Source: Candidatus Zambryskiibacteriota bacterium (GTDB lineage Bacteria; Patescibacteriota; Minisyncoccia; Phycocordibacterales; DATDWN01). Taken from it: a DNA stretch of 64,000 nt. Within the stretch, counting starts at the first letter, position 1; the number at the start of each line of letters is the position of its first letter. The position numbers and the translations under genes were made by a program. This document shows, piece by piece, positions 1,837 to 63,399 of the stretch. The stretch covers positions 9,593 to 73,592 of the forward strand of contig JAHFOB010000001.1 in the NCBI GenBank assembly GCA_023267045.1, read 5' to 3'. The notes beneath the pieces are model-generated. The model made no database searches and was not told the DNA's origin. It was given only the letters and a program-made list of their open reading frames with translations.

Positions 1837-2840
1837 AGATTCTTATATCTACAGGTATATATCCACCAAAAATTGGAGGTCCAGCAGAATATAGCAAGAA
1901 CTTAAAAAGTCAGTTTATAACATCTGGACACAAGGTTTTTATTGCTACGTATTCTTTGGAAAATTATTTACCGACCGGCTTAAGACATCTTTATTTTTTC
2001 ATAAAAATAATGCCGAAAGTTTTACGTTCGGATTTCGTTTTAATAATGGATACATTTTCAGTTGGTTTGCCGACGGTTTTGGCTTGCAAACTTTTTGGTA
2101 AAAAATCGATCATTCGTACCGGCGGAGATTTTTTGTGGGAGGGGTTCGTTGAAAGAACGGGTAAAAAAGTATTACTTCGTGATTTTTATGAAAAAGAGAT
2201 AAATAATTTTTCTGCAAAAGAAAGAATTATTTTTAGGTTAACCAAATGGACACTTAAAAATACTTCTAAAATTGTTTTTTCAACACAGTGGCAAAGAGAG
2301 ATTTTTAAAAAACCATATGATCTTGAAATGGGACATACAGAAATAATAGAAAATTTCTACGGGTCTAAAGAGGGAGATTTTCAGCCAAAAGAAAAAGATT
2401 TCGTCGCTTCAACACGCAGACTTGTTTGGAAAAATACAGATCTTCTGAAAGAGGTTTTTCAAAAAATTAAGTCTAGAAATAATGAAGTTTCTCTTTTCTC
2501 TGCAAATTTGCCATTTGCAGAATTTATGGAGAAAATTAAAAACTGTTACGCTGTTATACAAGTTTCTTTAGGTGATATCAGTCCTAACATGATACTGGAT
2601 GCTATACGATATAACAGACCTTTCATTTGTACTAAAGAAGTTGGAATATACGATAGGATTGGAGATGTTGGTATTTTTGTTGATCCACTTAACGAAAAGC
2701 AGATAGAAGAGGCCGTCTTGAAATTATTAGATAAAAATGAATATGAAAAGGCTAAAGAAAAAGTAAAACAGTTTTCTTTTGTTCACACATGGCAAAGTAT
2801 TGCTACAGAATTTATGGGTGTTTATAACAAAATAAAATGA
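1833..2840 (+). CDS. Glycosyltransferase-like protein (GT-B-like N-terminal domain)
   Basis: N-terminus MKILISTGIYPPKIGGPAEY resembles a GT4 N-domain, but the C-terminal E-x7-E motif is not obvious. The gene sits in an operon, with ATGA stop/start overlaps to both neighbours. Confidence 0.45.
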   Translation: MKILISTGIYPPKIGGPAEYSKNLKSQFITSGHKVFIATYSLENYLPTGLRHLYFFIKIMPKVLRSDFVLIMDTFSVGLPTVLACKLFGKKSIIRTGGDFLWEGFVERTGKKVLLRDFYEKEINNFSAKERIIFRLTKWTLKNTSKIVFSTQWQREIFKKPYDLEMGHTEIIENFYGSKEGDFQPKEKDFVASTRRLVWKNTDLLKEVFQKIKSRNNEVSLFSANLPFAEFMEKIKNCYAVIQVSLGDISPNMILDAIRYNRPFICTKEVGIYDRIGDVGIFVDPLNEKQIEEAVLKLLDKNEYEKAKEKVKQFSFVHTWQSIATEFMGVYNKIK

Positions 2841-2841
2841 A

Positions 2842-2940
2842 TCCCGTTAGAGTTTTACTAAATTTGATTAGAGTAATAATTATATTAGAAAATCAGTGTA
2901 TAATAATTGGTATTAGAAAATAATGAAAAACTCTAACGGG
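2842..2940 (+). mobile_element. 99-bp miniature element bounded by inverted repeats TCCCGTTAGAGTTTTAC / GAAAAACTCTAACGGG, flanked by a 5-bp direct repeat ATGAA (copy 1)
   Basis: Read directly: the left arm (2842-2858) and right arm (2925-2940) are reverse complements. ATGAA lies at 2837-2841 and again at 2941-2945. The spacer holds an extended -10 box TGTATAAT (2897-2904) oriented toward the downstream gene. The original ATGA stop/start junction of the two flanking GT genes appears to have been split by the insertion. Confidence 0.6.
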
Positions 2941-4056
2941 ATGAAAGTACTTTCTATAAGCACAGACAGAAAATTGTTTGAAGAAGGAAGCGCTGTTTTA
3001 GAGCGTTCAAAAGATTATGCTTCCAAAATGGAGAAATTGCACATAATAGTTTTTTCCTTAAAAAGTCATAATTTAAAATTTAAAGAAGAAGGGAATTTGT
3101 ACATTTATCCAACAAATTCTTTGTCGAGATGGTTTTATGTGATGGATGCAGTGAAAATAGGAAAAAGTATTTTAAATAAAAGTTTTGTTATTTCCACCCA
3201 AGATCCATTTGAGACTGGTTTAGTCGGCTATAAACTTAAGAAAAAGTTTAATCTGCCACTCCAAATCCAAATACACACTGATTTCCTAAGTCCATATTTC
3301 AGAAATTCTTTCTTGAATTATATTCGTGTTTTTATTTCAAAATTTACTATTCCAAAAGCAGATTATGTTCGTGTTGTCAGTTCTTCAGTAGAAGATTCTC
3401 TAAGAAAAATCTCAACAAAAGTGAAAATTCAGATTTTGCCAGTTTTTGTTGATATTCCAAGAATAATGAATTTTCAACCAAAAAAAGATATAAAAAAAGA
3501 TTTTCCTCAATTTAAATTTAGTATTTTTATGGCTTCCCGGTTGACCAAAGAAAAGAGAATAGACACTGCACTCAAGGCTTTTAGAAAAGTAGTCGATGTC
3601 CACACAGAAGCTGGTTTGATTATTTCTGGATCAGGAAAAGAGGAAGGTAATCTAAAAAGTTTGGTAAAATCTCTAGGGCTTACAAAAAATGTTATTTTCA
3701 CTGGTTGGAATGATGGTTTGATTTCATATTATAAAACAGCAGATATTTTTCTACTTACTTCACAGTACGAGGGTTATGGTATGACTCTTGTGGAGGCTGG
3801 AGCATCGGGCTGTCCTATTGTTACGACAAAAGTTGGTCTGGCAAAAACAGATCTTTTTAAAAACGGAGCAAACTCTTTTGTCTGTTCAGTTTGGGATGTA
3901 AATTGTTTATCAGAATCTATTTTAAAACTTATTTCTAATCCCAATTTAAGACTATTGTTCAAAACAAAAATGCAGGATAGTATTAGAAATACAACTATTT
4001 CAAAAGAAGAATATGTGACAAAGTATGTCAGTTTGCTTCAGGATTTATTAAAATAA
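2941..4056 (+). CDS. Glycosyltransferase family 4
   Basis: Carries the E-x7-E motif EGYGMTLVEAGASGCPIVTT. The track start at 2923 adds MKNSNG, which is encoded by the element's right repeat; 2941 is the ATG contiguous with the gene body. Confidence 0.7.
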   Translation: MKVLSISTDRKLFEEGSAVLERSKDYASKMEKLHIIVFSLKSHNLKFKEEGNLYIYPTNSLSRWFYVMDAVKIGKSILNKSFVISTQDPFETGLVGYKLKKKFNLPLQIQIHTDFLSPYFRNSFLNYIRVFISKFTIPKADYVRVVSSSVEDSLRKISTKVKIQILPVFVDIPRIMNFQPKKDIKKDFPQFKFSIFMASRLTKEKRIDTALKAFRKVVDVHTEAGLIISGSGKEEGNLKSLVKSLGLTKNVIFTGWNDGLISYYKTADIFLLTSQYEGYGMTLVEAGASGCPIVTTKVGLAKTDLFKNGANSFVCSVWDVNCLSESILKLISNPNLRLLFKTKMQDSIRNTTISKEEYVTKYVSLLQDLLK

Positions 4057-4917: not shown

Positions 4918-5333
4918 TAGAGAGAATGATTGAAAGACTAACCAGACATGTTTTCGTGCGGTTTTTTATATCTGGTGGCACTTCTGCTATGGTGGACTTA
5001 GTTTTACTATATATCCTAAACAGCGTCGTCGGTGTTCATTATCTCTTGGCAGCAACTTTGGCTTTTATTGGGGCGTTTGGAGTTAGTTTTACTTTACACA
5101 AATACTGGACATTCAAAAGTCACGCCGAGGAAACTCATAGACAAGTTGTTATGTACCTTTTCGCTTCTCTGCTTTCTCTCGTTCTCAACACGATTTTGAT
5201 TTATGTTTTTGTCGATCGTTTTCATATACAAGTTTTACTCTCACAGATTTTTGTCGGTCTGATTATTGCTAGTTTTAGTTTTTTTCTTTCGCACAAGTTT
5301 GTTTTTAAGTATAAAGGTCAAATCTCACAATGA
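4914..5333 (+). CDS. GtrA-family small polytopic membrane protein (polyprenyl-phosphate sugar translocation associated)
   Basis: 139 aa with about four TM helices and the GtrA-like N-terminal RFFISGGTSAMVDLVLLYIL. It is positioned like Rv3789, next to the dprE1/dprE2-like pair. Confidence 0.55.
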   Translation: MIERMIERLTRHVFVRFFISGGTSAMVDLVLLYILNSVVGVHYLLAATLAFIGAFGVSFTLHKYWTFKSHAEETHRQVVMYLFASLLSLVLNTILIYVFVDRFHIQVLLSQIFVGLIIASFSFFLSHKFVFKYKGQISQ

Positions 5334-6352
5334 AACTTCTTATATTTACTCAAAAAGTAGACAAAAATGATCCAACTCTAGGCTTTTTCCATACATGGAT
5401 AAAAGAGCTTTCAAAAAAGTCGGATTCTATTGCCGTCGTTTGTCTTGGGAAAGGTCAGTATGATTTGCCTAAAAACGTTACAGTTTATTCACTAGGTAAG
5501 GAAAGTGGTTTATCGAGACTCGGTTATTTGAAAAATCTTTTCCACTATCTTTATTTGATACGAGGTTCATATGACAAAGTTTTTGTTCACATGAACGAAG
5601 AGTACGTTTTACTCTGTGGACTTTATTGGAAGATAAAAAATATTCCAGTTTATTTCTGGCGTAATCATCCTAGGGGTAGTTTGGTCACCAGAGTTTCCGT
5701 TCTACTTTCCAAAAAAGTTTTTTGTACATCAAAAGATTCTTTTACTGCAAGATTTAGGAAAACAGTTATTATGCCAGCCGGCATTGATACAACCATTTTC
5801 AAACCAATAGAGGGTGTCGTTCGCAAGAAATATTCAGTTTGTATGGTCGGTAGAGTTTCTCCGATAAAAAATATTGATCTTGCTCTGCCAGCTATAAGGA
5901 TTTTGGTCTCATGGGGTTTTCAAGTATCACTTTCAATAATTGGTCCTATTCCAAAAAATGATTTGAAATATCTTGATAGTCTGAGGGCGTACGTAAAAAA
6001 TTACAATCTATCAAATTCAATTTCATTTCTTGAGGCAGTTTCTCCGCTAGAGTTAGCAAAAGTATATAGTAGTTACGAGGTAACGCTCAATTTGACTGAT
6101 ACTGGCTCGTTTGATAAAACAATCGTTGAGGCGGCGGCTTGTGGCTCAATACCTCTGGTTTCTAACAAGTCTTTCTCACTTTTACTTCCAGAGGTTTGTA
6201 TAATAGAAAAATCACAAGAAGCCGTATCAGAGGGTATCAAGAGGCTTTTGAGTGCTCACGAACAAATAGAAATCCAAAAAAATTTAGAAACTTTTGTTAA
6301 AGCACAAAGTCTCACGGGGCTGATCGATAAACTTATTGTAGAAATGAACTAA
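5330..6352 (+). CDS. Glycosyltransferase (GT-B-like)
   Basis: 340-aa ORF translationally coupled to its neighbours in the glycosylation operon. The C-terminal region is EAAACGSIPLVSN-like. Homology is weak. Confidence 0.4.
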   Translation: MKLLIFTQKVDKNDPTLGFFHTWIKELSKKSDSIAVVCLGKGQYDLPKNVTVYSLGKESGLSRLGYLKNLFHYLYLIRGSYDKVFVHMNEEYVLLCGLYWKIKNIPVYFWRNHPRGSLVTRVSVLLSKKVFCTSKDSFTARFRKTVIMPAGIDTTIFKPIEGVVRKKYSVCMVGRVSPIKNIDLALPAIRILVSWGFQVSLSIIGPIPKNDLKYLDSLRAYVKNYNLSNSISFLEAVSPLELAKVYSSYEVTLNLTDTGSFDKTIVEAAACGSIPLVSNKSFSLLLPEVCIIEKSQEAVSEGIKRLLSAHEQIEIQKNLETFVKAQSLTGLIDKLIVEMN

Positions 6353-6358
6353 TATGTA

Positions 6359-6457
6359 TCCCGTTAGAGTTTTACAAGTTTTGAAAATGGTACAATTATA
6401 TTTAATAAATTATGGTATATTTGGTCGGGAGGTATAATAATTAAGAACTCTAACGAG
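6359..6457 (+). mobile_element. 99-bp inverted-repeat element, copy 2, flanked by 5-bp direct repeat ATGTA
   Basis: Left arm TCCCGTTAGAGTTTTAC at 6359-6375; right arm GAACTCTAACGAG at 6445-6457. ATGTA lies at 6354-6358 and at 6458-6462. A TATAAT box sits at 6433-6438. The element is exactly the same length as copy 1. Confidence 0.55.
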
Positions 6458-7177
6458 ATGTATAAAAATAAAAAAGTAAGTGTAGTAATATCCACCTATA
6501 ATGAGTCAGCAAGCATTCGTGGTGTTATAGACGATTTTTTTGCTACAGGTCTTGTTGATGAAGTTGTTGTGGTAGACAACAACGCTCTTGGAAATACAAG
6601 AGAGGAAGTTGCTAAGACAAAAGCTCGTCTTATTGTTGAAAAGAAACAGGGATTGGGTTGGGGTTTACGAAAGGGGCTTGAAGAAGTAACAGGAGATTTG
6701 ATTGCAATGGTAGATGCTGATGGATCATATTTTTCAAAGGATATTGAAAAACTTCTTGCATACAGCGATGAGTTCGATGCTGTGCTTGGAACAAGAACTT
6801 CTCGATCTGCGATTTTCTCTGGGGCATTTATGCCCTTTTCTGTACGTATTGCAAATTCAATTTGGGCAAAGTCAGTAGAGTTTTTGTATAACGGACCATT
6901 ACTGAGTGACGTAGGTTGTTTATATAAACTTTTATCGAGAAAGGCACTCAACGAAATAAAGCCATTTTTTCCTATATCTACTGGTGGACCAATTTTTTCT
7001 CTGGAGATTATACTTTGGCTTTTGCGTAAAAAAGTCAAAACTATTGAGGTGCCAGTGATTTTTAAAGAAAGAGTGGGTAAGTCGAGTTATGTTGGTGATA
7101 GCATCTACAAAACGGCAAAATGGGGGTTTAAAATGATACCTTTTATTATAAGAGATAGGTTTATTTCAGTTAGATAA
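6458..7177 (+). CDS. GT2 glycosyltransferase, polyprenyl-phosphate sugar synthase-like (DPM1/GtrB-like catalytic domain)
   Basis: VSVVISTYNE start and DAD motif (IAMVDADGSY), which are GT2 hallmarks. At 239 aa it has no membrane domain. Confidence 0.7.
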   Translation: MYKNKKVSVVISTYNESASIRGVIDDFFATGLVDEVVVVDNNALGNTREEVAKTKARLIVEKKQGLGWGLRKGLEEVTGDLIAMVDADGSYFSKDIEKLLAYSDEFDAVLGTRTSRSAIFSGAFMPFSVRIANSIWAKSVEFLYNGPLLSDVGCLYKLLSRKALNEIKPFFPISTGGPIFSLEIILWLLRKKVKTIEVPVIFKERVGKSSYVGDSIYKTAKWGFKMIPFIIRDRFISVR

Positions 7178-31473: not shown

Positions 31474-32490
31474 TTAGAAAAATTGTTTGAATCTTCGGAG
31501 TGAAGCTGATGTGTTTGCTATGAGTTTTGGTGCGATGATCATACTTAAAAACTGAATATTTTCTGGAAAAATATCGAAATAAATACTAAGTGCATTCAAC
31601 GAAAATTTACGCACCCTTACCCCATTAAATGATTTTAGCAAGAGTCCTCCCATGAGAAGTGATGCCCAGTGTTTTCTGTATTTTCTATATTCACTTGGTA
31701 AATACTCTTTTATAATTTTTGCCACTTCAGGTGGGTCAAATGTATCTATCCAAAAATCGAGTGGGATATTATGTGTCCAATTTGTTTCGTTTTTTCGATG
31801 AAGTACAAAACACTGTCCGATAATAAGCAGTTTTCCATATTTGCCAATACCTATAAGTAATGGCGCTTGAAATATATACACATTTTTTGGTTTTAAGTAT
31901 TTTCTTGTAGTTTCAAGTTCTTTGTTAAATATATCCTTTTTAAAAACGACAGCTGTAGCCAAGTTTGTCATATGAATCCAATTGTTAACATCCCTCAGTT
32001 TGTTACAATCTCTTTCAAAATCTTCTATAAAGATATCTTTTGTAATATTGAGTCTGTTTTGTAGAGAGATCTCATACTTTTTATTTGAATCATCAAGCGA
32101 CATCATATTTGATGTGTTGATCAAAATAATATTTGGTTTTTTTTCTCTAATACAATCAATAATATATTTCAGTGCTCCATCTGTAAGCAAATCATCGTCG
32201 CAACATATAAGAACATAGGGGCCTATCGCTTTATCTATAAGCCATAATATGTTTGGCGAAACCCCAAGATTTTTCTCTTGGACATATCCATCTACAAAAC
32301 CATATTCGTTGTCAGCGTGTTTGACGTATGTGGCTGTATCATCGCCAGATGCATCATCGCTTATAATTATTTGGACTAGGTTTTCCAGTCCAGCACTTTT
32401 GATTTGATTAGCTAAAGTGGTAACTATAGTTTCAAGAAATTTTACTCTCTTGTACGTAGGAATAACTATACTAAGTAAAATATTTTTCAT
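31474..32490 (-). CDS. GT2 glycosyltransferase
   Basis: LLSIVIPTYKR start and a DDD region (ICCDDDLL). The track start at 32508 adds MNDSNG from the repeat footprint. The ATG at 32490-32488 is contiguous with the gene body. Confidence 0.65.
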   Translation of the reverse strand: MKNILLSIVIPTYKRVKFLETIVTTLANQIKSAGLENLVQIIISDDASGDDTATYVKHADNEYGFVDGYVQEKNLGVSPNILWLIDKAIGPYVLICCDDDLLTDGALKYIIDCIREKKPNIILINTSNMMSLDDSNKKYEISLQNRLNITKDIFIEDFERDCNKLRDVNNWIHMTNLATAVVFKKDIFNKELETTRKYLKPKNVYIFQAPLLIGIGKYGKLLIIGQCFVLHRKNETNWTHNIPLDFWIDTFDPPEVAKIIKEYLPSEYRKYRKHWASLLMGGLLLKSFNGVRVRKFSLNALSIYFDIFPENIQFLSMIIAPKLIANTSASLRRFKQFF

Positions 32491-32503
32491 CCCGTTAGAG
32501 TCG
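32491..32503 (-). repeat. 13-bp footprint or solo terminal repeat (CGACTCTAACGGG on the minus strand) of the 99-bp element, flanked by ATGAA direct repeats
   Basis: Plus strand reads TTCAT-cccgttagagtcg-TTCAT (32486-32508). The footprint sits at a TGA/ATG stop-start junction, the same target context as the full copies. Confidence 0.5.
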
Positions 32504-32504
32504 T

Positions 32505-33581
32505 TCATATTTTCCAGCTTATTCTTCGAGGAATAAAATGTTTATCATCTTTCCACTCTTTCAGTGTTGCTTCTCTGGCTGCAGTCCAAATACTCATATT
32601 CCAGCTTATGTTTCCATTCGTGTCCATTACTGGTGGTATATTATGTTCTTGACACCATTTTTTTGCAGAGTCAGCATATATTTTTTCGTCTGTTGATGTT
32701 TGGCCACTTAAATGTTCACAGGCTAATCCAAGTACTGCCACGGTATAACCTTTTTCTATTGCTTGAAGACAAATAAGTCGGTCATAGTAGTGGTTAATAG
32801 GGAAGTTTGGTCGATAACCAATCTCATTCCAGACTTTTCTAGGGAAGGCAATTGCGCATCCATCTAGTAAAATTGCTTCGGTCAGTCCATCAAAACGCTC
32901 ACCATGTACCTTTGCGTCTGTGCCAGTCCATTTTTTGTCTTTGTATCTATATGTTCTCGCGGCAAAGTTTGAAGTTGTCCCCCATCCTCGTCCACCAGTT
33001 TTGTTTATTTCATCAGAACCTACAAAACCAACTACACCAAGTTTCGGATCGCGTGCAAACAAATATTTTAGGAGAACATCAAAGTTGTCTTCATCGACTA
33101 CGATATCGCTGTGAATAAAAAGTATAATATCTCCCTCCGTGTTTTTCATACCAACATCGAAACACGGATAAACGCTTATATTTCCTTCTGGCGGGCAAAT
33201 CACTTTTACTTTGATATCTGCTGGTAAGTGCGAAGTTTCTGGTCTGAAATCACCCCCATTGTCTATCACAACAATTTCAATTGGTTCGCTATGGTGTTTT
33301 ACAATTTTATTAATACAAAATTGTGCCAAATCATGTTGTCCCAACACCGGAATTATAATTGAAAATGTAAGGTGGTGAGTTTTTTTGTGGCCATATTCTT
33401 TTGCCGCTTCTCGCAACTCCTTTCCAGGATTTTTGCCTACATAAAGTCCGATCTTTCTTATGAGGTTTTGAGTTTTGTGATATATAAATCTATACGTCTT
33501 ATACAAGAGTGGACTAAATCCTTGTTTTCGGAGCATACGATAGGCATTCTGGATTTTAGTTGTGAGTGGTATTTTCTGCAT
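32505..33581 (-). CDS. Glycosyltransferase, GT2-like
   Basis: FSIIIPVLGQ ... VVIDNGGD and SDIVVDEDNFD motifs. Confidence 0.5.
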   Translation of the reverse strand: MQKIPLTTKIQNAYRMLRKQGFSPLLYKTYRFIYHKTQNLIRKIGLYVGKNPGKELREAAKEYGHKKTHHLTFSIIIPVLGQHDLAQFCINKIVKHHSEPIEIVVIDNGGDFRPETSHLPADIKVKVICPPEGNISVYPCFDVGMKNTEGDIILFIHSDIVVDEDNFDVLLKYLFARDPKLGVVGFVGSDEINKTGGRGWGTTSNFAARTYRYKDKKWTGTDAKVHGERFDGLTEAILLDGCAIAFPRKVWNEIGYRPNFPINHYYDRLICLQAIEKGYTVAVLGLACEHLSGQTSTDEKIYADSAKKWCQEHNIPPVMDTNGNISWNMSIWTAAREATLKEWKDDKHFIPRRISWKI

Positions 33582-54503: not shown

Positions 54504-54579
54504 CATACCACATGCCGAGGTAACTCAGTTAGCAGAGTGCTTCCCTGAAGAGGAAGAAGTCGCCAGTGCAACTCTGGCC
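54504..54579 (+). tRNA. tRNA-Phe (anticodon GAA)
   Basis: Manual fold: acceptor GCCGAGG/CCTCGGC, D-stem ACTC/GAGT, anticodon stem CTTCC/GGAAG with loop CTGAAGA, T-stem GCCAG/CTGGC, discriminator A, and an encoded CCA. Confidence 0.8.
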
Positions 54580-56132
54580 CTCGGCACCATAATCCGACTT
54601 TCGTCGGAAGAACCAACGGATGCGTGGGACGCGCGAAGTGCGTCCCACGGAGTTCCGCCTGAATCTGCGAGGGAATCTGTCAAAAATGAATCTGAATTTG
54701 GAGTGCAAGCACTCACGGTTTTTTCGCGGAGGAGGAGGTTCGAGCCAAAGACTTTTTTGGCAGCAACCTTTTTATTCAAAAGGTTGCTATCCAATGCAAT
54801 TTTTTCCATATTCTGGGCTTCTTTTATCCATTCTGACATCGGTTCGAGCCAATGTTTTTGCTTTTGTTCATTCCGAGATATTTCTTCTTCCAGCGACTTT
54901 TTCTCGGATAACAATTTTGCTTTTTGTTCACGATATACTTCTTTTTCTACATCTTGGTCTAAATATCCATCTAAAAGTCGCTGGAGCTTCACAGTAATAT
55001 CTTTTATACGATTTTGATTTTTTAGAACAAAAGCAGAAACAGATTGGGCGGATTCCGTTTTGTCGTTTTCTAAACGACCGAACATATATTCCGCCCAATC
55101 TTGTGGCAAAGAAACTTTTTGAAGAAGTGATGAAATTTGTTCGTCCAAGACTTCCTGGCGAATACAGGGTTCAGGACACTTAATATCTCGTCGCTTTTTG
55201 GAACAGTGATAGTAAGTGTAATAATGTTCTTTACCACTGACTTGTTTCTTCACCCTGTATTCGCCAGTGATCATCATTCCGCAAGTTCCACAGGATAACA
55301 AACCACAATATGCTTGGGGTTCATTTTTCTGTTTGTGTCTTGGACGACCTCTTTGCTTCATCACTTCTTGGACTCTATCAAAAAGTTTCTTGTCCACGAT
55401 TGGCTCAAACTTTCCTTCATAGACTTCACCAGAATATCTAAAGTGTCCATAGTAAAAAGGATTAGACAGAATAAAAGTAGCTCTGGTTCTATGGATTCTC
55501 TTTCCGTGTTTTGTTAAAAGATTGTGCTTCGCCAAAAACATACCGATAGTATTAAGAGTTTGATTACCTTGTGAATACAGTTCGAACGCTTGTCTTATAA
55601 CAGGCGCGGATTTTTTGTCCACCACGATTGTCTTTGTTCTACTATCGTTTATATATCCCACTGGTGAAAGTCCTGGATATTCTCCGCGCCTAACTTTTTG
55701 GCGAAGTCCTCTTTTGGTATTTTCGGAAAGAGAATCCACATAGTATTTACTTTGTCCGAAAGCCATGTTGAGCATGAATTTACCTTGACTCGTAGAATCA
55801 CACCAAAAAGTAGGAAACTTCAAGCTCGCAAGTTTCCCTGTGTCGAGGAGGTATATTATTTTTCCACCATCAATACTATTTCTTGCGAGACGATCCGGAT
55901 GCCAAGAGAGGATAGAATCTGCATCGCCATTTTCGATACATCTCATCATTTCGTTGAAAATAGGACGACCTGGAATCTTGGCAGATTGTTTTTCTATAAA
56001 CTCAAGGGCGATGTTCAGATTTTCTCGCTTGGCATAGTCTCGCAATTCGTTGAGCTGTGCCTCAATCGAAAGAACTTGTTTGTCCTCGACATCTGTTGAC
56101 TTGCGAGCGTATAAAAAGAATTTTTGTTCCAT
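54525..56132 (-). CDS. Large serine recombinase (resolvase/integrase family)
   Basis: N-terminal catalytic domain FFLYARKSTDVEDKQVLSIEAQ (Ser nucleophile context) ... WHPDRLARN, a recombinase domain, and Cys-rich zinc-ribbon CGTCGMMITGEYRVKK...CSKKRRDIKC. M at 56132 is the likely start. The 3' end of the ORF runs through IR-A and antisense through tRNA-Phe with no stop until 54525, so the true C-terminus is uncertain. Confidence 0.75.
   Translation of the reverse strand: MEQKFFLYARKSTDVEDKQVLSIEAQLNELRDYAKRENLNIALEFIEKQSAKIPGRPIFNEMMRCIENGDADSILSWHPDRLARNSIDGGKIIYLLDTGKLASLKFPTFWCDSTSQGKFMLNMAFGQSKYYVDSLSENTKRGLRQKVRRGEYPGLSPVGYINDSRTKTIVVDKKSAPVIRQAFELYSQGNQTLNTIGMFLAKHNLLTKHGKRIHRTRATFILSNPFYYGHFRYSGEVYEGKFEPIVDKKLFDRVQEVMKQRGRPRHKQKNEPQAYCGLLSCGTCGMMITGEYRVKKQVSGKEHYYTYYHCSKKRRDIKCPEPCIRQEVLDEQISSLLQKVSLPQDWAEYMFGRLENDKTESAQSVSAFVLKNQNRIKDITVKLQRLLDGYLDQDVEKEVYREQKAKLLSEKKSLEEEISRNEQKQKHWLEPMSEWIKEAQNMEKIALDSNLLNKKVAAKKVFGSNLLLREKTVSACTPNSDSFLTDSLADSGGTPWDALRASHASVGSSDESRIMVPRARVALATSSSSGKHSAN
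54622..54756. repeat. Inverted repeat IR-A (~135 bp, left copy) flanking the serine recombinase gene
   Basis: About 85% identical to the reverse complement of 56185-56317. It contains the hairpins CGTGGGACGC-gcgaagt-GCGTCCCACG and GAGTGC-aa-GCACTC, and ends in a T-arm-like GGAGGAGGTTCGAGCC. Confidence 0.7.
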
Positions 56133-56184
56133 ATGTTTGTAGTATAGCAAAAATTCTTTTTGTAAAGAAAAGTAAAAATTGTAT

Positions 56185-56317
56185 TGGATTCGAACCTCCT
56201 CCTCCAAAACAAATTAGTGCGCGCTTGCGCGCCAGATTCAGATTCATTTTTGGCGGATTCCATCGCAGATTCAGGCGGGAACCCTTGGGATGCACTTCGT
56301 GCGTCCCACATTATGGC
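56185..56317. repeat. Inverted repeat IR-A' (right copy, about 50 bp upstream of the recombinase start)
   Basis: Reverse complement of 54622-54756. The hairpins are conserved with compensatory changes (GCGCGC-aa-GCGCGC against GAGTGC-aa-GCACTC). Confidence 0.7.
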
Positions 56318-56334
56318 TTCTTCAAAACCGATTT

Positions 56335-56575
56335 GTTCTATTTTGGTGTGTCTTTACGACTTCGCTCGAACTTATTTCATTAAAACTGTTTAAGTGGTGA
56401 ATCTGACAATGAATTCCGTCACGGCTCGGCATCCGCTCCAGAACACGCTGGAAAGCGTGTTCTTCCGCTTCTGCCTTACCGTGTCCGCCCTCGCACCCAT
56501 CGCTTCCAATCCTAAATCTGTTTTGCGCGGGATTTCTTTTTTCGGAATGGGCGATTGGTTCTCGGGCTACTTGCC
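56335..56575. repeat. Inverted repeat IR-B (~240 bp, left copy), GC-rich, with internal hairpin GAACACGCT-ggaa-AGCGTGTTC and a terminal hairpin plus T-tract
   Basis: Near-identical to the reverse complement of 59355-59598. The identical 61-aa track ORFs (56394-56579 + and 59347-59547 -) are a consequence of this repeat. Confidence 0.75.
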
Positions 56576-56611
56576 GTGACAAAAAATTAACCAAAATGTT
56601 ATACTTAAAAC

Positions 56612-58228
56612 ATGGATGAACAAACTCCTACTATTATTCCTCCCCCGATACCCCAGGAAGAACCTCAAAAAACTAAACAGCCATTATGGTTAGCGGTCTC
56701 AATTCTGGCTGCAGTTTTTGTAGTTGTCGGTAGTTATTTTATATATCAAAAACTAACGACAAAATCACAGATTCAGAATGTAAATTTTGTAAATATTGCT
56801 ACGACCACAGATCAATTTGCAAATTGGAAAACATATACCGATGAACAGTATAAATTTGAGTTTAAATATCCAGCTACACTTGAAGTTTTTAAAGATAATA
56901 CGGCGATTATTCACATTATTCATCCCGAAGATAAGGACGTAGATTTAAGTAAAACTGGGCCAGTAGATGGCATGTGGATACATGTTGTGGATAATACAGA
57001 TAAATTATCCGTCACTGATTGGTGGAATAAATACGGACCTTATACTCCAAAAAGAAATGGTACTGGACTTAAACCCGACACTTTTCCAATTAAGAATATG
57101 AGCGTGGGTAATTTAAACGGTATTTACATTGGTGGTTCAGAGGGTGTTTTATCGAATTACCTCATTTTGCCATATATGGATAAAATCCTTGAAATTAATG
57201 TAATGACTAAAGATTTCAAGGAAATTCTCTCTACTTTAAAATTACCAGAATCATTAACAAAAGATTGGCAAACCTACAGAAACGATGAGTTTAAAATTTT
57301 TGAAATAAAATATCCTGGAGGATGGGTAATTCAACAGGAAGATCCTTACCAGCTTATTTTATCAAGTGCTCCAAAAGAACAATATTTGAAAGATGTTGGT
57401 GTCGCTCCTTCTGGAAATATGTCAATAACCGTGTCAGAGGGTGTAAATTGCTCTAGTGATGATTTCAAAAGCCTTCTCGGTTTTACGAAGTCAAACATTT
57501 CAGTTAAAAGAGTTTGTGTTGATGGATTTCAGATCTCAGCAGTTATTTGGAATGATGATACGCAAATAATTTCTCATAAAGAACTACTGAATGAAATTAT
57601 TTCCACATTTAAATTTATTGAGAAAAAACGACTTAGTAAAGAAGAACTAGCAAACAGAATATTACTAACTTCAGAAAATATTCCTACTTACGCAAAATAT
57701 AATGAACCATATAAAAGCGGGAGTTTACCCTCAGCATGTACTGAAAAATTTAATTATGACGAGCCAAATAGTACAACTACTTATTCTAATACAAAATGGG
57801 GCATATCGTTTGGAGTTCCATATAATGTAAATTGGGGAAATAGTAAGTACAGAATAGATCCGTATGAAGAAATTGAGGTAAATAATAAATATAACAACGA
57901 TGTCTTATCTGCTATTTCATGGGGTTATATTAGTGGTGGTGAGGGATGTTCATGGGGAAGACAATATTTTGTTGATATTAAATCAAAAAAATCAGCGGAG
58001 GATCTTATGACATCAATGAAACCGGATAATCTTCCTTACGATATATTTCATGCTAAAATCGAGACAATAAATAACTTACAGGTTGTAAAATATAGTACTG
58101 CCGATATGTGTGCATATTACTATATAGTAGTTATTGGTAAAAAATATAATTATGAATTCACATCTTCATGTAATGGAAGTTTTGATGACGTTGAACCGGT
58201 AGTTAAAACAGTAAAACTACTTGATTAA
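56612..58228 (+). CDS. Secreted or membrane-anchored protein of unknown function (N-terminal TM/signal anchor, Pro-rich linker, ~480-aa extracytoplasmic domain)
   Basis: KQPLWLAVSILAAVFVVVGSYFIY anchor. No recognisable catalytic motif. Enclosed between the IR-B copies. Confidence 0.4.
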   Translation: MDEQTPTIIPPPIPQEEPQKTKQPLWLAVSILAAVFVVVGSYFIYQKLTTKSQIQNVNFVNIATTTDQFANWKTYTDEQYKFEFKYPATLEVFKDNTAIIHIIHPEDKDVDLSKTGPVDGMWIHVVDNTDKLSVTDWWNKYGPYTPKRNGTGLKPDTFPIKNMSVGNLNGIYIGGSEGVLSNYLILPYMDKILEINVMTKDFKEILSTLKLPESLTKDWQTYRNDEFKIFEIKYPGGWVIQQEDPYQLILSSAPKEQYLKDVGVAPSGNMSITVSEGVNCSSDDFKSLLGFTKSNISVKRVCVDGFQISAVIWNDDTQIISHKELLNEIISTFKFIEKKRLSKEELANRILLTSENIPTYAKYNEPYKSGSLPSACTEKFNYDEPNSTTTYSNTKWGISFGVPYNVNWGNSKYRIDPYEEIEVNNKYNNDVLSAISWGYISGGEGCSWGRQYFVDIKSKKSAEDLMTSMKPDNLPYDIFHAKIETINNLQVVKYSTADMCAYYYIVVIGKKYNYEFTSSCNGSFDDVEPVVKTVKLLD

Positions 58229-58272
58229 TAATTTGTTGCTTAAAAATTGGTATTTGATATAATGTCAGTAAT

Positions 58273-58755
58273 ATGGCTCGCGATGTACTAAATGCACAAC
58301 AAATAGCCGAATACTTCCTCTGGAAAGCGCAAAACGAGAAAAAGGCAATTACGAATAAGAAACTGCAGAAATTACTTTACTATGCTCAAGCATGGTCTTT
58401 GGTTTTGCGTGACAAAAAACTTTTCAGTGACAAAATTGAGGCGTGGGTACATGGGCCTGCTGTTCGTGATGTATATTTTGAATACAAAAAATTTGGCTTT
58501 GGGCCAATCACAAAAACTGTAAAGGAAAATGACTTAGAAAAAATTTCTATAGATACAAAAAAATTCCTCGATCAAGTTTGGTCTGTATATGGTAAAAAAG
58601 ATGCAGCTTATTTGGAATATCTTTCTCACTCTGAAACTCCTTGGCAAAAAGCCCGCGAAGGACTTGAACCACATATTGGGTCTGAAAATGAAATTTCTCC
58701 TAAAGACATGAAGGAATTTTACAGTTCTAAACTCACAACACAGAAACATACTTAA
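58273..58755 (+). CDS. Panacea-domain (DUF4065/SocA-like) protein, a putative antitoxin-type component
   Basis: ARDVLNAQQIAEYFLWKAQ...ITNKKLQKLLYYAQAWSLVL...AWVHGPAVRDVY matches the DUF4065/Panacea core. Three nucleotides separate it from the next ORF. Confidence 0.45.
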   Translation: MARDVLNAQQIAEYFLWKAQNEKKAITNKKLQKLLYYAQAWSLVLRDKKLFSDKIEAWVHGPAVRDVYFEYKKFGFGPITKTVKENDLEKISIDTKKFLDQVWSVYGKKDAAYLEYLSHSETPWQKAREGLEPHIGSENEISPKDMKEFYSSKLTTQKHT

Positions 58756-58758
58756 ACT

Positions 58759-59187
58759 ATGACAATACCATCACCGGACGAGAAACTTCCAGAAAGTCCA
58801 ATACCATTGACCGCTGTTGAAATTCCACAACCTGAAGAACCGCCAGAAGCGAAACCTTTTCTGATATCTTTCGAAAAGTATAACGATAAGGAGTGCCAGC
58901 TAGACGGAATGGAGAGCAAAATGGCTAAAAAAGCTTTTAAAACTATTCGTGATATTGGTGTAAATATAAGAGACGAAAGCGATTTTGGTAAATATTTACC
59001 AAAATTAGAAGTTGTCCCTATAGAAAATAGTGGAGATTACAGAAAATTATACAAAGGACTAACAGATATGCCAGATGTTGAAGTGAAAGAAGCAAAAATT
59101 GATCGTCATACAGGTCGATTATTCTTTTTCTTGGTAGGTAAAATTTTTCATATTATCGCGGTAAGAGAAAGTCATTACCAAACATAA
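58759..59187 (+). CDS. Hypothetical protein with a RelE/ParE/Gp49-like C-terminal region; putative toxin partner
   Basis: C-terminal KIDRHTGRLFFFLVGKIFHIIAVRESHY resembles the RelE/ParE-superfamily C-terminal strand-helix. The Pro-rich N-terminal extension is unusual. Tightly coupled to the upstream Panacea gene. Confidence 0.25.
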   Translation: MTIPSPDEKLPESPIPLTAVEIPQPEEPPEAKPFLISFEKYNDKECQLDGMESKMAKKAFKTIRDIGVNIRDESDFGKYLPKLEVVPIENSGDYRKLYKGLTDMPDVEVKEAKIDRHTGRLFFFLVGKIFHIIAVRESHYQT

Positions 59188-59354
59188 AAAGCACAGCAGT
59201 TTACTTGTAGCCTCGGACATATTCCGTTTTGGGCGTCGTCACATAACTACAAAATGATACATTACCACTAGCGCAAAGGAATGTCTGAGGCGAATGATTA
59301 TGTTAGAGTAAAGATATAGGTAGGTAGTACAGTAGTTTGAATTCCGTCAGTTTC

Positions 59355-59598
59355 TCCCTTTAAGGAGAAACCCGCCCGAGAACCAATCGCCCATTCCGAA
59401 AAAAGAAATCCCGCGCAAAACAGATTTAGGATTGGAAGCGATGGGTGCGAGGGCGGACACGGTAAGGCAGAAGCGGAAGAACACGCTTTCCAGCGTGTTC
59501 TGGAGCGGATGCCGAGCCGTGACGGAATTCATTGTCAGATTCACCACTTAAACAGTTTTAATGAAATAAGTTCGAGCGAAGTCGTAAAGACACACCAT
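59355..59598. repeat. Inverted repeat IR-B' (right copy)
   Basis: Reverse complement of 56335-56575. The match breaks at TTCTCGGGC on both sides. Confidence 0.75.
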
Positions 59599-59663
59599 AA
59601 TCAAAAACCATCCTGAGTTTATCGAAGGATGGTTTTTTGATTGCGGTGCCAAATATGGAAGTT

Positions 59664-60900: not shown

Positions 60901-63033
60901 TTACTTAGGCCACATCGATATCATAAGCATCTCTTTTTCTTTGCCAGGAAGGTTTTGCCAGATTTCTTCTGTTATAAAAGGCATGAACGGGTGTAGTATC
61001 GTAAGGCAAGTTTCCAGAATATGAGTCAATGTATATTGTATCGATGAAACCACTTCAGGATCTTCACTTTTTAATTTTTCTTTTGATTGTTCTATTATTT
61101 TATCAGCAAATGTGTGCCAAACATAGTGATAAAGTTTTTCTGTAGCTAGATAAAATCTAAAGTTGTCCATATCACTTGTAACATCTTGAACTAAAAGATT
61201 TAGTTCATCGAGCGTAGTTTGGTCACTACTTTCGATTTTTCCGGGTCTTTTAGCATCCCAGTTTTCGGTATTTGATAATACAAATCTAGTTATGTTCCAA
61301 ATCTTATTAGCGAAAAGTTTATAAGCCTTAACTTTGCTTTCTTGCAGTGCTAGATCTGTTCCTGGCGTATTTCCGACAATGAGAGCCATTCGCAAAGCAT
61401 CTGTTCCGTATTTTGAAGTCAGATCGAGTGGATTTACGACATTACCTTTTGACTTACTCATTTTTTTACCTTTGGCGTCGTTTACAAGTCCATGAAGATA
61501 GACAGTATTGAAAGGTACTTTGCCAGAAAGATAGAGACCAAAAATGACCATACGTGGGACCCATTTGAAAATCAAGTCATGTCCAGTTTCCATAACGTCT
61601 GTCGGATAATACTTTTCAAAATCTTTTCCATCTGGGTAGCCGGTGACAAATAGTGGCCATTGCCCAGACGAGAACCATGTATCAAATGTGTCAGAGTCTT
61701 TTATCCAACCGTCACCTTCCGGTTTTTCTTTGCTTGCTGTAGCTTCATTTTCTTTGAGCCATGCTGGTATAGGTATACCCCAAACTATCTGACGAGAAAT
61801 ATTCCAATCTATTGTATTGTTCATCCAATATCTAAAGATTTTTTCGTAGTTATCAGGTATAAATTTCACTTCCCCTCTATCAACTGATTCCAGAGCTTTT
61901 TTTGCCAGAGGTTCCATTTTAACAAACCATTGATCTTTTATTTGAGGTTCGATTATTGTATTGCATTTGTAGCATCTTTTAACAACATTTTTATATTTGT
62001 CATCTATTTTTACAAGCAGTCCTTTTTCTTTCAATTTATCAACTATTTTTGGCCGAGCTTCTTTTATATTTATTCCAGCAAATTCTCCCGCAACAGGCAA
62101 AAGTTTCCCACGCCAGTCGATTATTTGTTCAACATCCAAGTTATATTTTTGAGCTAGCTCAAAATCCACCTGCGAATGCCATGGTGTGATAGTCATAACT
62201 CCCGTTCCAAACTCCATATCAACGACTGGGTCTTTTATGACAGTTGCTTCGATCGGGCCATTTATCCATTCGACCATCATTTTCTGTCCATGTTTATATT
62301 CGGAATATCTTTTGTCGTCTGGATGCATTACCACATATTTATCAGCAAATTTTGTTTCTGGCCTAACAGTTCCTATTTCAAATGGCCCGTATTTGAAATA
62401 ATAAAAAGGATTTATCTCTTCAACAGATTCAGTTTCAACTTCAGATAGGGAAGTCTGATGTTTTGAACACCAGTTCACAGTTCGTTTGCCTCTGTAAACT
62501 AAACCATCGTTATACATTTTTATAAACGTATCTTGAGTTTTTTTTACAATGTCTGGATCAAGTGTAAATTTTTCACGCGACCAATCACATGAAGCCCCAA
62601 GAGATCTGACTTGAGTCTCCATATTCTTTTTATTCTCTAAAGTAAAATCTAGAATTTCTTTGTATAAATCTTTTGGATCCATGCCAAATCTAGATCTCCC
62701 TTCTTTCTCAAGTTTCTTTTCATAAACAACTTGTGTTTCAAATCCAGCATGGTCTGCACCAGGAATCCAAAGACTTCTAAATCCCTGCATTCTTTTGAAA
62801 CGAGTCAGTATGTCTTCAATAGTTATAAACAAAGCATGTCCAGCATGGAGGTTGCCGTTTGCATTAGGTGGGGGCATAACTATTGTAAACGGTTCAGCTT
62901 TTGAGTTAGTGTTGTTGTCTGGACTAAAAAATCCACTGTTTTCCCACATACTGTAGATCCGATTTTCCGTATTTTCTGGTTTGTATGGGGATAAGAATAT
63001 TTCTTTCATCCCGTTAGAGTTTTTCATAATCAA
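60901..63033 (-). CDS. valS: Valyl-tRNA synthetase (compact form lacking the long C-terminal coiled-coil)
   Basis: PFTIVMPPPNANGNLHAGHA (HIGH region, with the ValRS-type PPPN context) and KMSKSKGN. The track start at 63033 includes MIMKNSNG encoded by the 99-bp element. MKEIFL at 63009 is the ATG contiguous with the gene body. Confidence 0.8.
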   Translation of the reverse strand: MIMKNSNGMKEIFLSPYKPENTENRIYSMWENSGFFSPDNNTNSKAEPFTIVMPPPNANGNLHAGHALFITIEDILTRFKRMQGFRSLWIPGADHAGFETQVVYEKKLEKEGRSRFGMDPKDLYKEILDFTLENKKNMETQVRSLGASCDWSREKFTLDPDIVKKTQDTFIKMYNDGLVYRGKRTVNWCSKHQTSLSEVETESVEEINPFYYFKYGPFEIGTVRPETKFADKYVVMHPDDKRYSEYKHGQKMMVEWINGPIEATVIKDPVVDMEFGTGVMTITPWHSQVDFELAQKYNLDVEQIIDWRGKLLPVAGEFAGINIKEARPKIVDKLKEKGLLVKIDDKYKNVVKRCYKCNTIIEPQIKDQWFVKMEPLAKKALESVDRGEVKFIPDNYEKIFRYWMNNTIDWNISRQIVWGIPIPAWLKENEATASKEKPEGDGWIKDSDTFDTWFSSGQWPLFVTGYPDGKDFEKYYPTDVMETGHDLIFKWVPRMVIFGLYLSGKVPFNTVYLHGLVNDAKGKKMSKSKGNVVNPLDLTSKYGTDALRMALIVGNTPGTDLALQESKVKAYKLFANKIWNITRFVLSNTENWDAKRPGKIESSDQTTLDELNLLVQDVTSDMDNFRFYLATEKLYHYVWHTFADKIIEQSKEKLKSEDPEVVSSIQYTLTHILETCLTILHPFMPFITEEIWQNLPGKEKEMLMISMWPK

Positions 63034-63107
63034 TTTTTAATTTTAGTCTATATTTTGCGCGATAGATAATACATATCCACATTCGTTATAAGTAAAACTC
63101 TAACGGG
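63009..63107 (-). mobile_element. 99-bp inverted-repeat element, copy 3, immediately upstream of valS, flanked by ATGAA direct repeats (minus-strand sense)
   Basis: Plus-strand arms TCCCGTTAGAGTTTTTC (63009-63025) and GTAAAACTCTAACGGG (63092-63107). TTCAT lies at 63004-63008 and again at 63108-63112. Same length as the other two copies. Confidence 0.55.
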
Positions 63108-63399
63108 ATTCATGTAATAAGATTAACATATAGACGTCGTAGTTAGTAGGTTTTGTTAAAAAAGACTATTTTCATATAAAGGACATAGCATATCGACTCT
63201 AAATCTAATGTCCTTTATAAGTCTTTTCTAAAATAAGTCGCAAAATAATGTCTTAATAGAATCTAAAGGACATCAATTTTGGCATAAAAGACAAATATTA
63301 AAATACAGCTCAGATTAGCCATATAATAAAAATCACTAAAATTTTCTAGCTATTGACGACATCGCAAAGCAAGTGTATCCTTTACGAACTAAAGTTTTT

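Follow-up and report, generated by a model that had tools for sequence, protein, structure and literature searches.

A 64,000-nucleotide stretch of contig JAHFOB010000001.1 from a Candidatus Zambryskiibacteriota bacterium (assembly GCA_023267045.1; hereafter the window) carries three copies of a short sequence, each bounded by 15-bp terminal inverted repeats (TIRs, or arms) and each lying flush with the start codon of the gene that follows it. Based on the repeats that flank the copies and on empty sites at the orthologous positions of relatives, we conclude that they are very probably a non-autonomous mobile DNA element resembling the MITEs (miniature inverted-repeat transposable elements). 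The unusual part is the manner of insertion, which is flush with the start codon, rebuilds that codon and is polar with respect to the gene. In the literature searched, arm sequences included, we found no description of the element or of such targeting for bacterial mini-transposons, coverage of that literature being incomplete.

The initial annotation of this DNA had described a MITE-like element present in three copies of equal length. The window sequence bears this out: the copies lie where they had been placed, and they are non-coding, TIR-bounded, multi-copy and flanked by target-site-like duplications. Each measures 98 bp from CCCG to CGGG, 99 bp with an extra T and 100 bp with its complementary outer pair. 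The individual features are as follows, where GT4 and GT2 denote glycosyltransferase families 4 and 2.

2842..2941, plus strand: copy 1, 100 bp, arms at 2842-2856 and 2927-2941; a GT4 gene (2941-4056) has A2941 as the first base of its start codon
2838..2841 (left) and 2942-2945 (right), plus strand: duplication TGAA of copy 1; A2837 and the left copy make up the original ATGAA
6359..6458, plus strand: copy 2, arms at 6359-6373 and 6444-6458; A6458 begins a GT2 gene (6458-7177)
6355-6358 and 6459-6462, plus strand: duplication TGTA of copy 2
63009..63108, minus strand: copy 3, in the same orientation as valS (60901-63009, minus strand), arms at 63094-63108 (gene-distal) and 63009-63023 (gene-proximal)
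63005-63008 and 63109-63112: duplication of copy 3, TTCA as read on the plus strand
32490..32503, minus strand: remnant of a right end only ('footprint'), made up of CGACTCTAACGGG and a terminal A, with ATGAA (32504-32508) on one side and (A)TGAA (32486-32490) on the other
2923..2940, plus strand: in-frame ATG and right arm of copy 1, read as a spurious N-terminal extension, MKNSNG
63027-63010, minus strand: in-frame ATG and arm of copy 3, read as an MKNSNG extension of valS

The arms CCCGTTAGAGTTTT and AAAACTCTAACGGG are exact in five of the six window arms, the right arm of copy 2 (6444-6457) reading AGAACTCTAACGAG, with two mismatches. Shared ends had been claimed for all copies and are indeed found in all of them, although the GTAAAACTCTAACGGG end is true only for copy 3 as read on the plus strand. 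The exact 14-mer CCCGTTAGAGTTTT has 5 matches on the two window strands combined, compared with ~0.0005 expected per 14-mer in 128 kb, and its recurrence is therefore not due to chance. The three interiors cannot be aligned with one another, and the strand of each copy follows its gene rather than the contig. The flanking ATGAA, ATGTA and ATGAA are present around the three copies as reported, but the direct repeat, first taken to be 5 bp, is better read as 4 bp beside a complementary T..A or C..G terminal pair. The stop codon of the gene upstream of copy 1 (1833-2840) is the TGA inside the left repeat, and conceptual excision restores the predicted ATGA stop/start overlap at 1833-2840 / 2941-4056, as well as a TAA-T-ATG junction at 5330-6352 / 6458-7177. 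The possibility that the shared sequence is a DNA uptake sequence was rejected, since within the window the 10-mer occurs only inside these elements.

The single footprint is likewise real, the minus strand at 32486-32508 reading ATGAA-CGACTCTAACGGG-ATGAA. The real start of the GT2 gene at this position is ATG 32490-32488, and its homologues begin at the MKN.. position, which corresponds to the second ATG; the ATG at 32508, upstream of this start, overlaps the stop codon of the gene at 32505-33581. Three unrelated proteins had been said to carry the MKNSNG extension. Two of them do (from 2923 and 63027), copy 2 has no upstream in-frame ATG, and the third case is MNDSNG at the footprint. NCBI protein P0001 begins at MKE, without the MKNSNG extension. 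An open reading frame (ORF) of 28 codons runs from the old start codon of copy 1 across the element (2837-2925); its TAA (2921-2923) overlaps the in-frame ATG at 2923 (TAATG), a geometry that is not general in the family.

Empty orthologous sites, a check proposed in the initial annotation, were found for all three window positions. The valS site is empty in orthologues L107-L113. The nearest relatives reached, whose valS protein is 81-82% identical, have a plain ...AAATAAATGAAAGAT start and keep the valS-prsW-hsp20 synteny. Both glycosyltransferase junctions are empty in L115, a relative of the same lineage in which the cluster is kept (...AATAATATGAAAGTA... and ...AAATAAAATGTACAAG...). The MKNSNG extension occurs in 0 of 119 other GT4 homologues among the matches listed, nearly all of which begin with an MKVLSI-type motif. 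Recent movement is indicated as well. In the metagenome-assembled genome (MAG) WY3.bin113, two copies with identical interiors and matching arm ends lie on different contigs, in front of different genes. Other valS lineages carry the element at the same ATGAA with unrelated interiors, and at topA the start codon is occupied by different subfamilies in two orthologues, indicating that these valS and topA start codons have been hit repeatedly. Exact-protein look-ups of the 'excised' gene forms found none on record. A metagenome scan for the copy-1 empty site and a viral scan for the element each returned 0 matches, and it may simply be that those collections do not include the source organism.

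These results bear on a different view of the sequence, in which a fixed set of genes would have inherited it vertically as a conserved operator or cis-regulatory RNA. The occurrence of the same arm sequence across many lineages would fit such a view. However, the nearest relatives lack the sequence at every one of the window positions, the downstream genes are unrelated, the interior is neither conserved nor excess-structured, and no Rfam family matches, all of which makes this explanation extremely improbable. In the window, Rfam gave 0 matches at gathering score, the best permissive match being lysM-TM7 (12.5 against a 61.5-bit threshold), which was absent from 10 Saccharibacteria loci. A regulon was rejected as well, since the downstream genes are unrelated. 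Separately, a palindromic motif (AAAGGACAT / ATGTCCTTT) occurs in 2-3 repeats upstream of valS, both in the window (~63150-63330, minus-strand sense) and in lineages L107, L111 and L114, with or without the element; this motif may be a conserved operator or leader structure.

The element family and its insertion sites

Further copies were retrieved from public assemblies with an exact-arm pattern allowing a 57-87-nt gap, and the genomes were examined as 8-kb tiles (~840 kb in total); ORF calls were mechanical and the taxonomy of MAGs was taken from record titles. The family comprises 104 stretches from 60 public assemblies, mostly of Patescibacteria (candidate phyla radiation, CPR), with 124 distinct copies. 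Hosts of the Parcubacteria type include Zambryski-, Taylor-, Moran-, Uhr-, Nomura-, Yonath- and Gribaldobacteria as well as Paceibacterota, and Saccharibacteria are further hosts. Exact-arm copies were also observed on contigs binned as Omnitrophota, Nitrospirota, Gammaproteobacteria and Bdellovibrionales (L032, L054, L080, L047, L078 and L083; GC 45-56%), and reflect either horizontal spread beyond Patescibacteria or mis-binned contigs. A Saccharibacteria contig that bears an element also contains a group I intron scoring above the Rfam threshold (L036 286-510; 57.6 bits).

Elements are ~92-130 bp long, mostly 92-103 bp, and have the general form Y-CCCGTTAGAGTTTT ... AAAACTCTAACGGG-R around an AT-rich interior, the GC content of which is 25-38% in hosts that range from 34% to 58%. 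The basal 9-10 bp of the arm are constant, while the next few positions are variable yet complementary. Positions 0-12 are paired in 82-84 of the 84 start-codon copies, and pairing falls to the background level from position 15. In the window the outer pair is T..A, other genomes have C..G, and the pair is complementary in 120 of the 124 copies. There is no coding capacity, the old ATG opening only short ORFs of arbitrary length and frame; a conserved leader-peptide or reinitiation design was rejected because the stops reached from the old ATG are scattered and show no frame preference. We found no folding of the interior beyond the arms, as shuffled interiors fold equally well (mean z about 0), and a whole-element hairpin, whether REPIN-like or a structured RNA, was rejected for this reason. 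Copies from one genome fall into subfamilies whose interiors are 70-86% identical, and WY3.bin113 and Moranbacteria MFD04408 contain at least 13 copies in the parts examined. Five of the six MITE properties tested were found, namely a short non-coding sequence, TIRs, a variable target duplication, multicopy subfamilies and presence/absence. One locus departs from the general form in that variant arms (CCCGTTAGACAT ... ATGTCTAACGGA) enclose a whole tRNA-Ala(cgc) gene on the opposite strand (L100 995-1109).

In 83 of the 124 copies, the CGGG end directly abuts the ATG or GTG start of an ORF no shorter than 60 codons, which upholds the link to translation starts made in the initial annotation. 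Of these 83 start-codon copies, 65 have a flanking repeat of 4 bp and 11 have one of 3 bp. Across copies, the repeats read TGAA, TGTA, TGGA, TGAG, TGCA, TATA, TCCA or TTGA, or roughly TNNA. The base preceding the left repeat is A in 74 of 78 start-class copies, so that the old start codon is still visible upstream, while the downstream start codon consists of the element's last purine and the duplicated TG. Since the complementary terminal pair belongs to the element, the first base of this start codon is supplied by the element. Copies with C..G ends have the left flank ATGAAC and the right flank GTGAA, and the start is thereby changed from ATG to GTG; the nfo gene, for example, starts with ATG in L033 versus GTG in L077. 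Both neighboring genes stay intact, the left repeat keeping the old ATG and often also the TGA stop codon of the upstream gene. Approximately half of the copies lie in tight same-strand junctions, including nine in ATGA overlaps, and the others head a transcription unit. The downstream genes are unrelated housekeeping genes, among them the essential valS, topA, ssb, secY, ftsH and dnaN.

Copies away from start codons have similar four-base targets (TTGA, TCAA, TATA, TCCA, TGGA), and several lie on functional boundaries. Three copies were observed at tRNA ends (L026 6320-6430, L041 6820-6930 and L096 4641-4740): two genomes have one at the 3' CCA of tRNA-Ala(ggc), with a TCCA repeat, and one has it at the 5' end of tRNA-Pro. 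Copies with a TTGA repeat lie within TTGAC boxes (L078 2639-2852 and 7003-7110; L072 930-1006). In L078 the rebuilt TTGACC is followed by TATACT 17 nt on, and a -35 box may have been regenerated here in the way that start codons are. Finally, L052 5529-5744 contains two tandem copies with the same CGTAA repeat between them and on both sides, indicating that the second insertion reused the duplicated target of the first.

Start-codon excess, polarity and expression

By crude ORF calls, free TGAA sites in the ~840 kb number 133 at start codons, 2127 in intergenic and 7441 in intragenic positions. Elements with a TGAA repeat, in contrast, number 52 at starts versus ~3 elsewhere. A preference for TNNA combined with the loss of intragenic insertions does not yield the observed start-codon ratio. 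In addition, the polarity of the element relative to the gene is 55:6 (p = 5e-11). The gene-distal end is marked by TTTTAC and by a G-rich patch 20-35 nt in, a weak motif (aTAAcGGGGT) that resembles the right end. Taken together, the polarity bias and the excess at start codons point either to gene-start-coupled targeting or to strong selective pressure on expression. We propose, tentatively and as the less probable course of events, that the element actively homes to translation starts and does not simply survive there. Its integration machinery would then recognize a feature peculiar to gene starts, for instance DNA opened in the course of transcription or of translation initiation, or would depend on hairpin-dependent recombination via a TGNA overlap.

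The initial annotation had regarded the element as a mobile promoter, with an outward-facing promoter in the interior as its main function and the reason for its retention, driving or uncoupling the downstream gene. The fixed polarity is as expected of such a promoter, and in the tight same-strand junctions a new promoter would be of consequence. At its inner end, the gene-distal arm reads TTTTAC, containing TTTAC(A) and resembling a -35 box, in 38 of 84 copies compared to 9 for the proximal arm, and -10-like hexamers cluster 18-23 nt further in. Strong sigma-70-type matches were found in 12% of elements on the forward strand, 4% on the reverse strand and 4% of shuffled sequences, with native upstream regions also at 12%. 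However, this excess amounts to only ~10 versus 3 elements, and the sigma-70 scan of the three window copies gave nothing above shuffles, the only match of copy 1 being antisense. The TATAAT-like box reported to face the gene does occur in each window interior as TATAAT or a near-match, but its position is not fixed and the opposite strand is equally rich in such hexamers. The family profile likewise lacks a position-specific -10 signal, and promoter rules for Patescibacteria are not established. Thus, the mobile promoter was not established by these data and is doubtful as the main function, while it is plausible, judging from the sequence, that some copies contain a promoter.

Polarity also bears on the view that the element is an inverton, in which a recombinase would flip the ~70-bp interior between the repeats and so switch glycosyltransferase and other genes. 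Inverted repeats around an AT-rich segment in front of surface-glycan genes, together with a serine recombinase encoded in the window, are features that an inverton would have. Against this, ~90% of copies share the same interior orientation (the 55:6 ratio above), and the orientation is the same in independent assemblies (the window versus L001 and L002; L117 versus L118). Moreover, the targets are mostly housekeeping genes, the empty sites and flanking repeats point to insertion rather than to a resident switch, and the window recombinase is of the large integrase type and lies beside a tRNA gene. We therefore consider an inverton very improbable.

The window neighborhood includes a 40-kb glycan-synthesis cluster, secA, a copper ATPase, valS-prsW-hsp20 and the one large serine recombinase, and the same DNA is also recorded in ENA and Logan metagenome assemblies. 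The recombinase gene (54525-56207, minus strand) abuts tRNA-Phe (54514-54589) and is bracketed by a 135-nt inverted repeat of 80% identity (54624-54758 / 56175-56309). Adjoining it is a perfect 228-nt inverted repeat (56340-56567 / 59374-59601) around 2.8 kb that encode a PsbP-like protein, a SocA/Panacea antitoxin and a small ORF. An integrated island, a segment capable of inversion and an artefact of assembly are all conceivable explanations of this region (54514-59601).

Pairing between the arms

We also considered whether the arms must pair, in single-stranded DNA or in mRNA, for the element to move or persist. In the DNA version of this hypothesis, a structure-specific recombinase would recognize the folded stem, as for integron attC sites or Xer acting on folded phage DNA, and the 4-6 bp of flank identity would be the crossover (overlap) region instead of a duplication made by a transposase. 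In the RNA version, the stem would loop the insert out and juxtapose the old leader and the rebuilt AUG, such that only a perfect stem flush with the AUG would be tolerated. Several observations are consistent with a role for pairing. The outer pair, which lies outside the search pattern, covaries among the 84 start-codon copies (T-A in 66, C-G in 16 and T-G in 2, with no other mismatch). For the 12 copies in which positions 9-12 were unconstrained by the search pattern, these positions pair in 47 of 48 cells and with several pair types, and pairing ends sharply after position 15. Several non-start copies have 6-7 bp of flank identity (GTCCAC, GTATAC, GTGGAC, GTCAAC, GCGTAAC). Abutted ends, of the form ...CTCTAACGGG-R-TGAA-Y-CCCGTTAGAG..., would give a 14-bp arm, 6 bp and a second 14-bp arm, which would correspond to the layout of tyrosine-recombinase core sites; the ORFs scanned in the window include no tyrosine recombinase. 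There is also a resemblance between the arm core, GTTAGAG/CTCTAAC, and the GTTRRRY/RYYYAAC boxes of attC.

Other observations speak against a pairing requirement. The order of the core is the mirror image of that of attC, with neither a cassette array nor an accompanying integrase in the window, and ordinary MITE subfamilies have matched ends too. Two near-identical strains each have one uncompensated arm mutation, indicating that in-place selection on pairing is not strong. G-T and A-C mismatches number 37 versus 49, and thus show no RNA-type wobble bias. On balance, we judge movement or persistence through a hairpin to be unlikely, although the covariation of the arms appears to speak for a need to pair, or at the minimum for subfamily masters whose ends match. 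The initial annotation had held that covarying arms, as opposed to identical DNA ends, would speak for a transcribed hairpin. Covariation between subfamilies is indeed seen at arm positions 10-12 and in the outer pair; the flanking repeats and the empty sites nevertheless keep the mobile-element interpretation in place.

Mechanism, known relatives and significance

If the copies are a MITE-like mobile element, as we think probable, then a trans-acting enzyme would make a ~4-nt staggered cut at TNNA, and the element would move by cut-and-paste or copy-paste. In two thirds of copies the target is TGNA, consisting of the TG of the start codon and the next two bases, with the cut between A and TGAA. 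Insertion would replace the immediate 5' leader by ~100 nt of AT-rich sequence, and this leader may hold a promoter in some copies. In read-through transcripts, the arms could close into a 15-bp stem ending at the AUG.

Several points weigh against this interpretation. Variation at arm positions 10-12 and at the terminal pair is compensated, which sequence-specific binding by a transposase would not by itself predict, and the evidence for a promoter, and hence for an effect on expression, is marginal. Only perfect arms satisfied the retrieval pattern for the outside loci, and the sample thus owes some of its arm conservation to the way it was collected. The repeats vary in length (3, 4 or 5 bp), and 15 of the 41 non-start copies have no repeat. 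A search for a cognate transposase with the same ends, which the initial annotation had suggested, revealed neither a transposase nor an autonomous partner among the 49 window ORFs scanned, which included the one large serine recombinase beside tRNA-Phe. No arm pair at transposon-sized spacing was noted in the ~840 kb of element-rich loci, where unpaired arms were inspected by eye only. Lastly, occupied ATGAA starts are not set apart from unoccupied ones by any extra motif.

The nearest analogue is the Correia repeat-enclosed element (CREE/NEMIS) of Neisseria, a non-coding element of ~100-155 bp with terminal inverted repeats and a short target duplication. Many Correia copies are gene-adjacent and co-transcribed, their repeats can form an RNA hairpin, and some create promoters; we know of no cognate transposase for them. 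The present element shares their size, TIRs, short duplication, non-coding nature and gene adjacency. Correia elements, however, neither abut start codons nor restore them. Their target duplication is TA, their repeats measure 26 bp, their interior is conserved and includes an IHF site, and their host range is a single genus, whereas the present element has a TNNA target, 15-bp arms and a variable interior, and occurs in 60 assemblies mostly of Patescibacteria. It is therefore not a Correia element.

MITEs derived from insertion sequences (IS) that make 3-5-bp duplications (IS5/PIF-like, IS1380/piggyBac-like and IS3-like) have the same small size, TIRs, short duplication and multicopy subfamilies. 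The CCC ends and the T..A four-base target recall IS1380/piggyBac (TTAA), a resemblance that we take to be a lead only. In contrast to these MITEs, no parent IS or transposase was found for the present element. Its variable terminal pair, covarying arms, mostly start-codon sites and fixed polarity set it apart as well.

Integron attC sites are imperfect palindromes of 57-141 bp between genes, in which only the basal boxes are conserved and the middle varies in sequence and length, and to this extent the element is similar. Its order, however, is GTTAGAG ... CTCTAAC on both strands rather than the RYYYAAC ... GTTRRRY of attC, which places it outside this group. Its junctions lie outside the whole arm and not between G and TT, and its copies are isolated, without arrays or a nearby integrase, carry flanking duplications and precede housekeeping genes. 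Rickettsia palindromic elements are also short palindromic mobile repeats, which persist because genes remain functional after the insertion, but they insert in frame inside genes and are translated, while the present element sits at the start codon. REPINs, hairpin-forming doublets moved by a single-copy enzyme, a Y1 transposase (REPIN/RAYT), resemble it as short palindromic mobile repeats. They fold over their full length, lack duplications and follow genes; here only the 15-bp ends pair, repeats are present and the sites are gene starts, so the element is not a REPIN.

In practical terms, the element accounts for false N-terminal extensions (MKNSNG, MNDSNG, MTKNSNG), for ATG to GTG changes of start codons and for split overlapping gene pairs in many Patescibacteria genomes, and a simple mask of the element would improve gene calls. 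Its arm sequence is also a convenient marker for horizontal exchange among uncultivated lineages. Were the element to home to gene starts, each fixed-polarity insertion would swap the leader of a gene for a portable one and rebuild the start codon; the element would then represent a class of bacterial mobile DNA that homes to start codons, and would offer a natural means of rewiring expression in the reduced genomes of Patescibacteria. More generally, a small mobile element that lies flush on the starts of essential genes without destroying them, and that recurs across lineages in one polarity, implies either a targeting mechanism aimed at gene starts or selection that has made the element a portable 5' leader. 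Both readings bear on the evolution of expression in tiny genomes with few known regulators.

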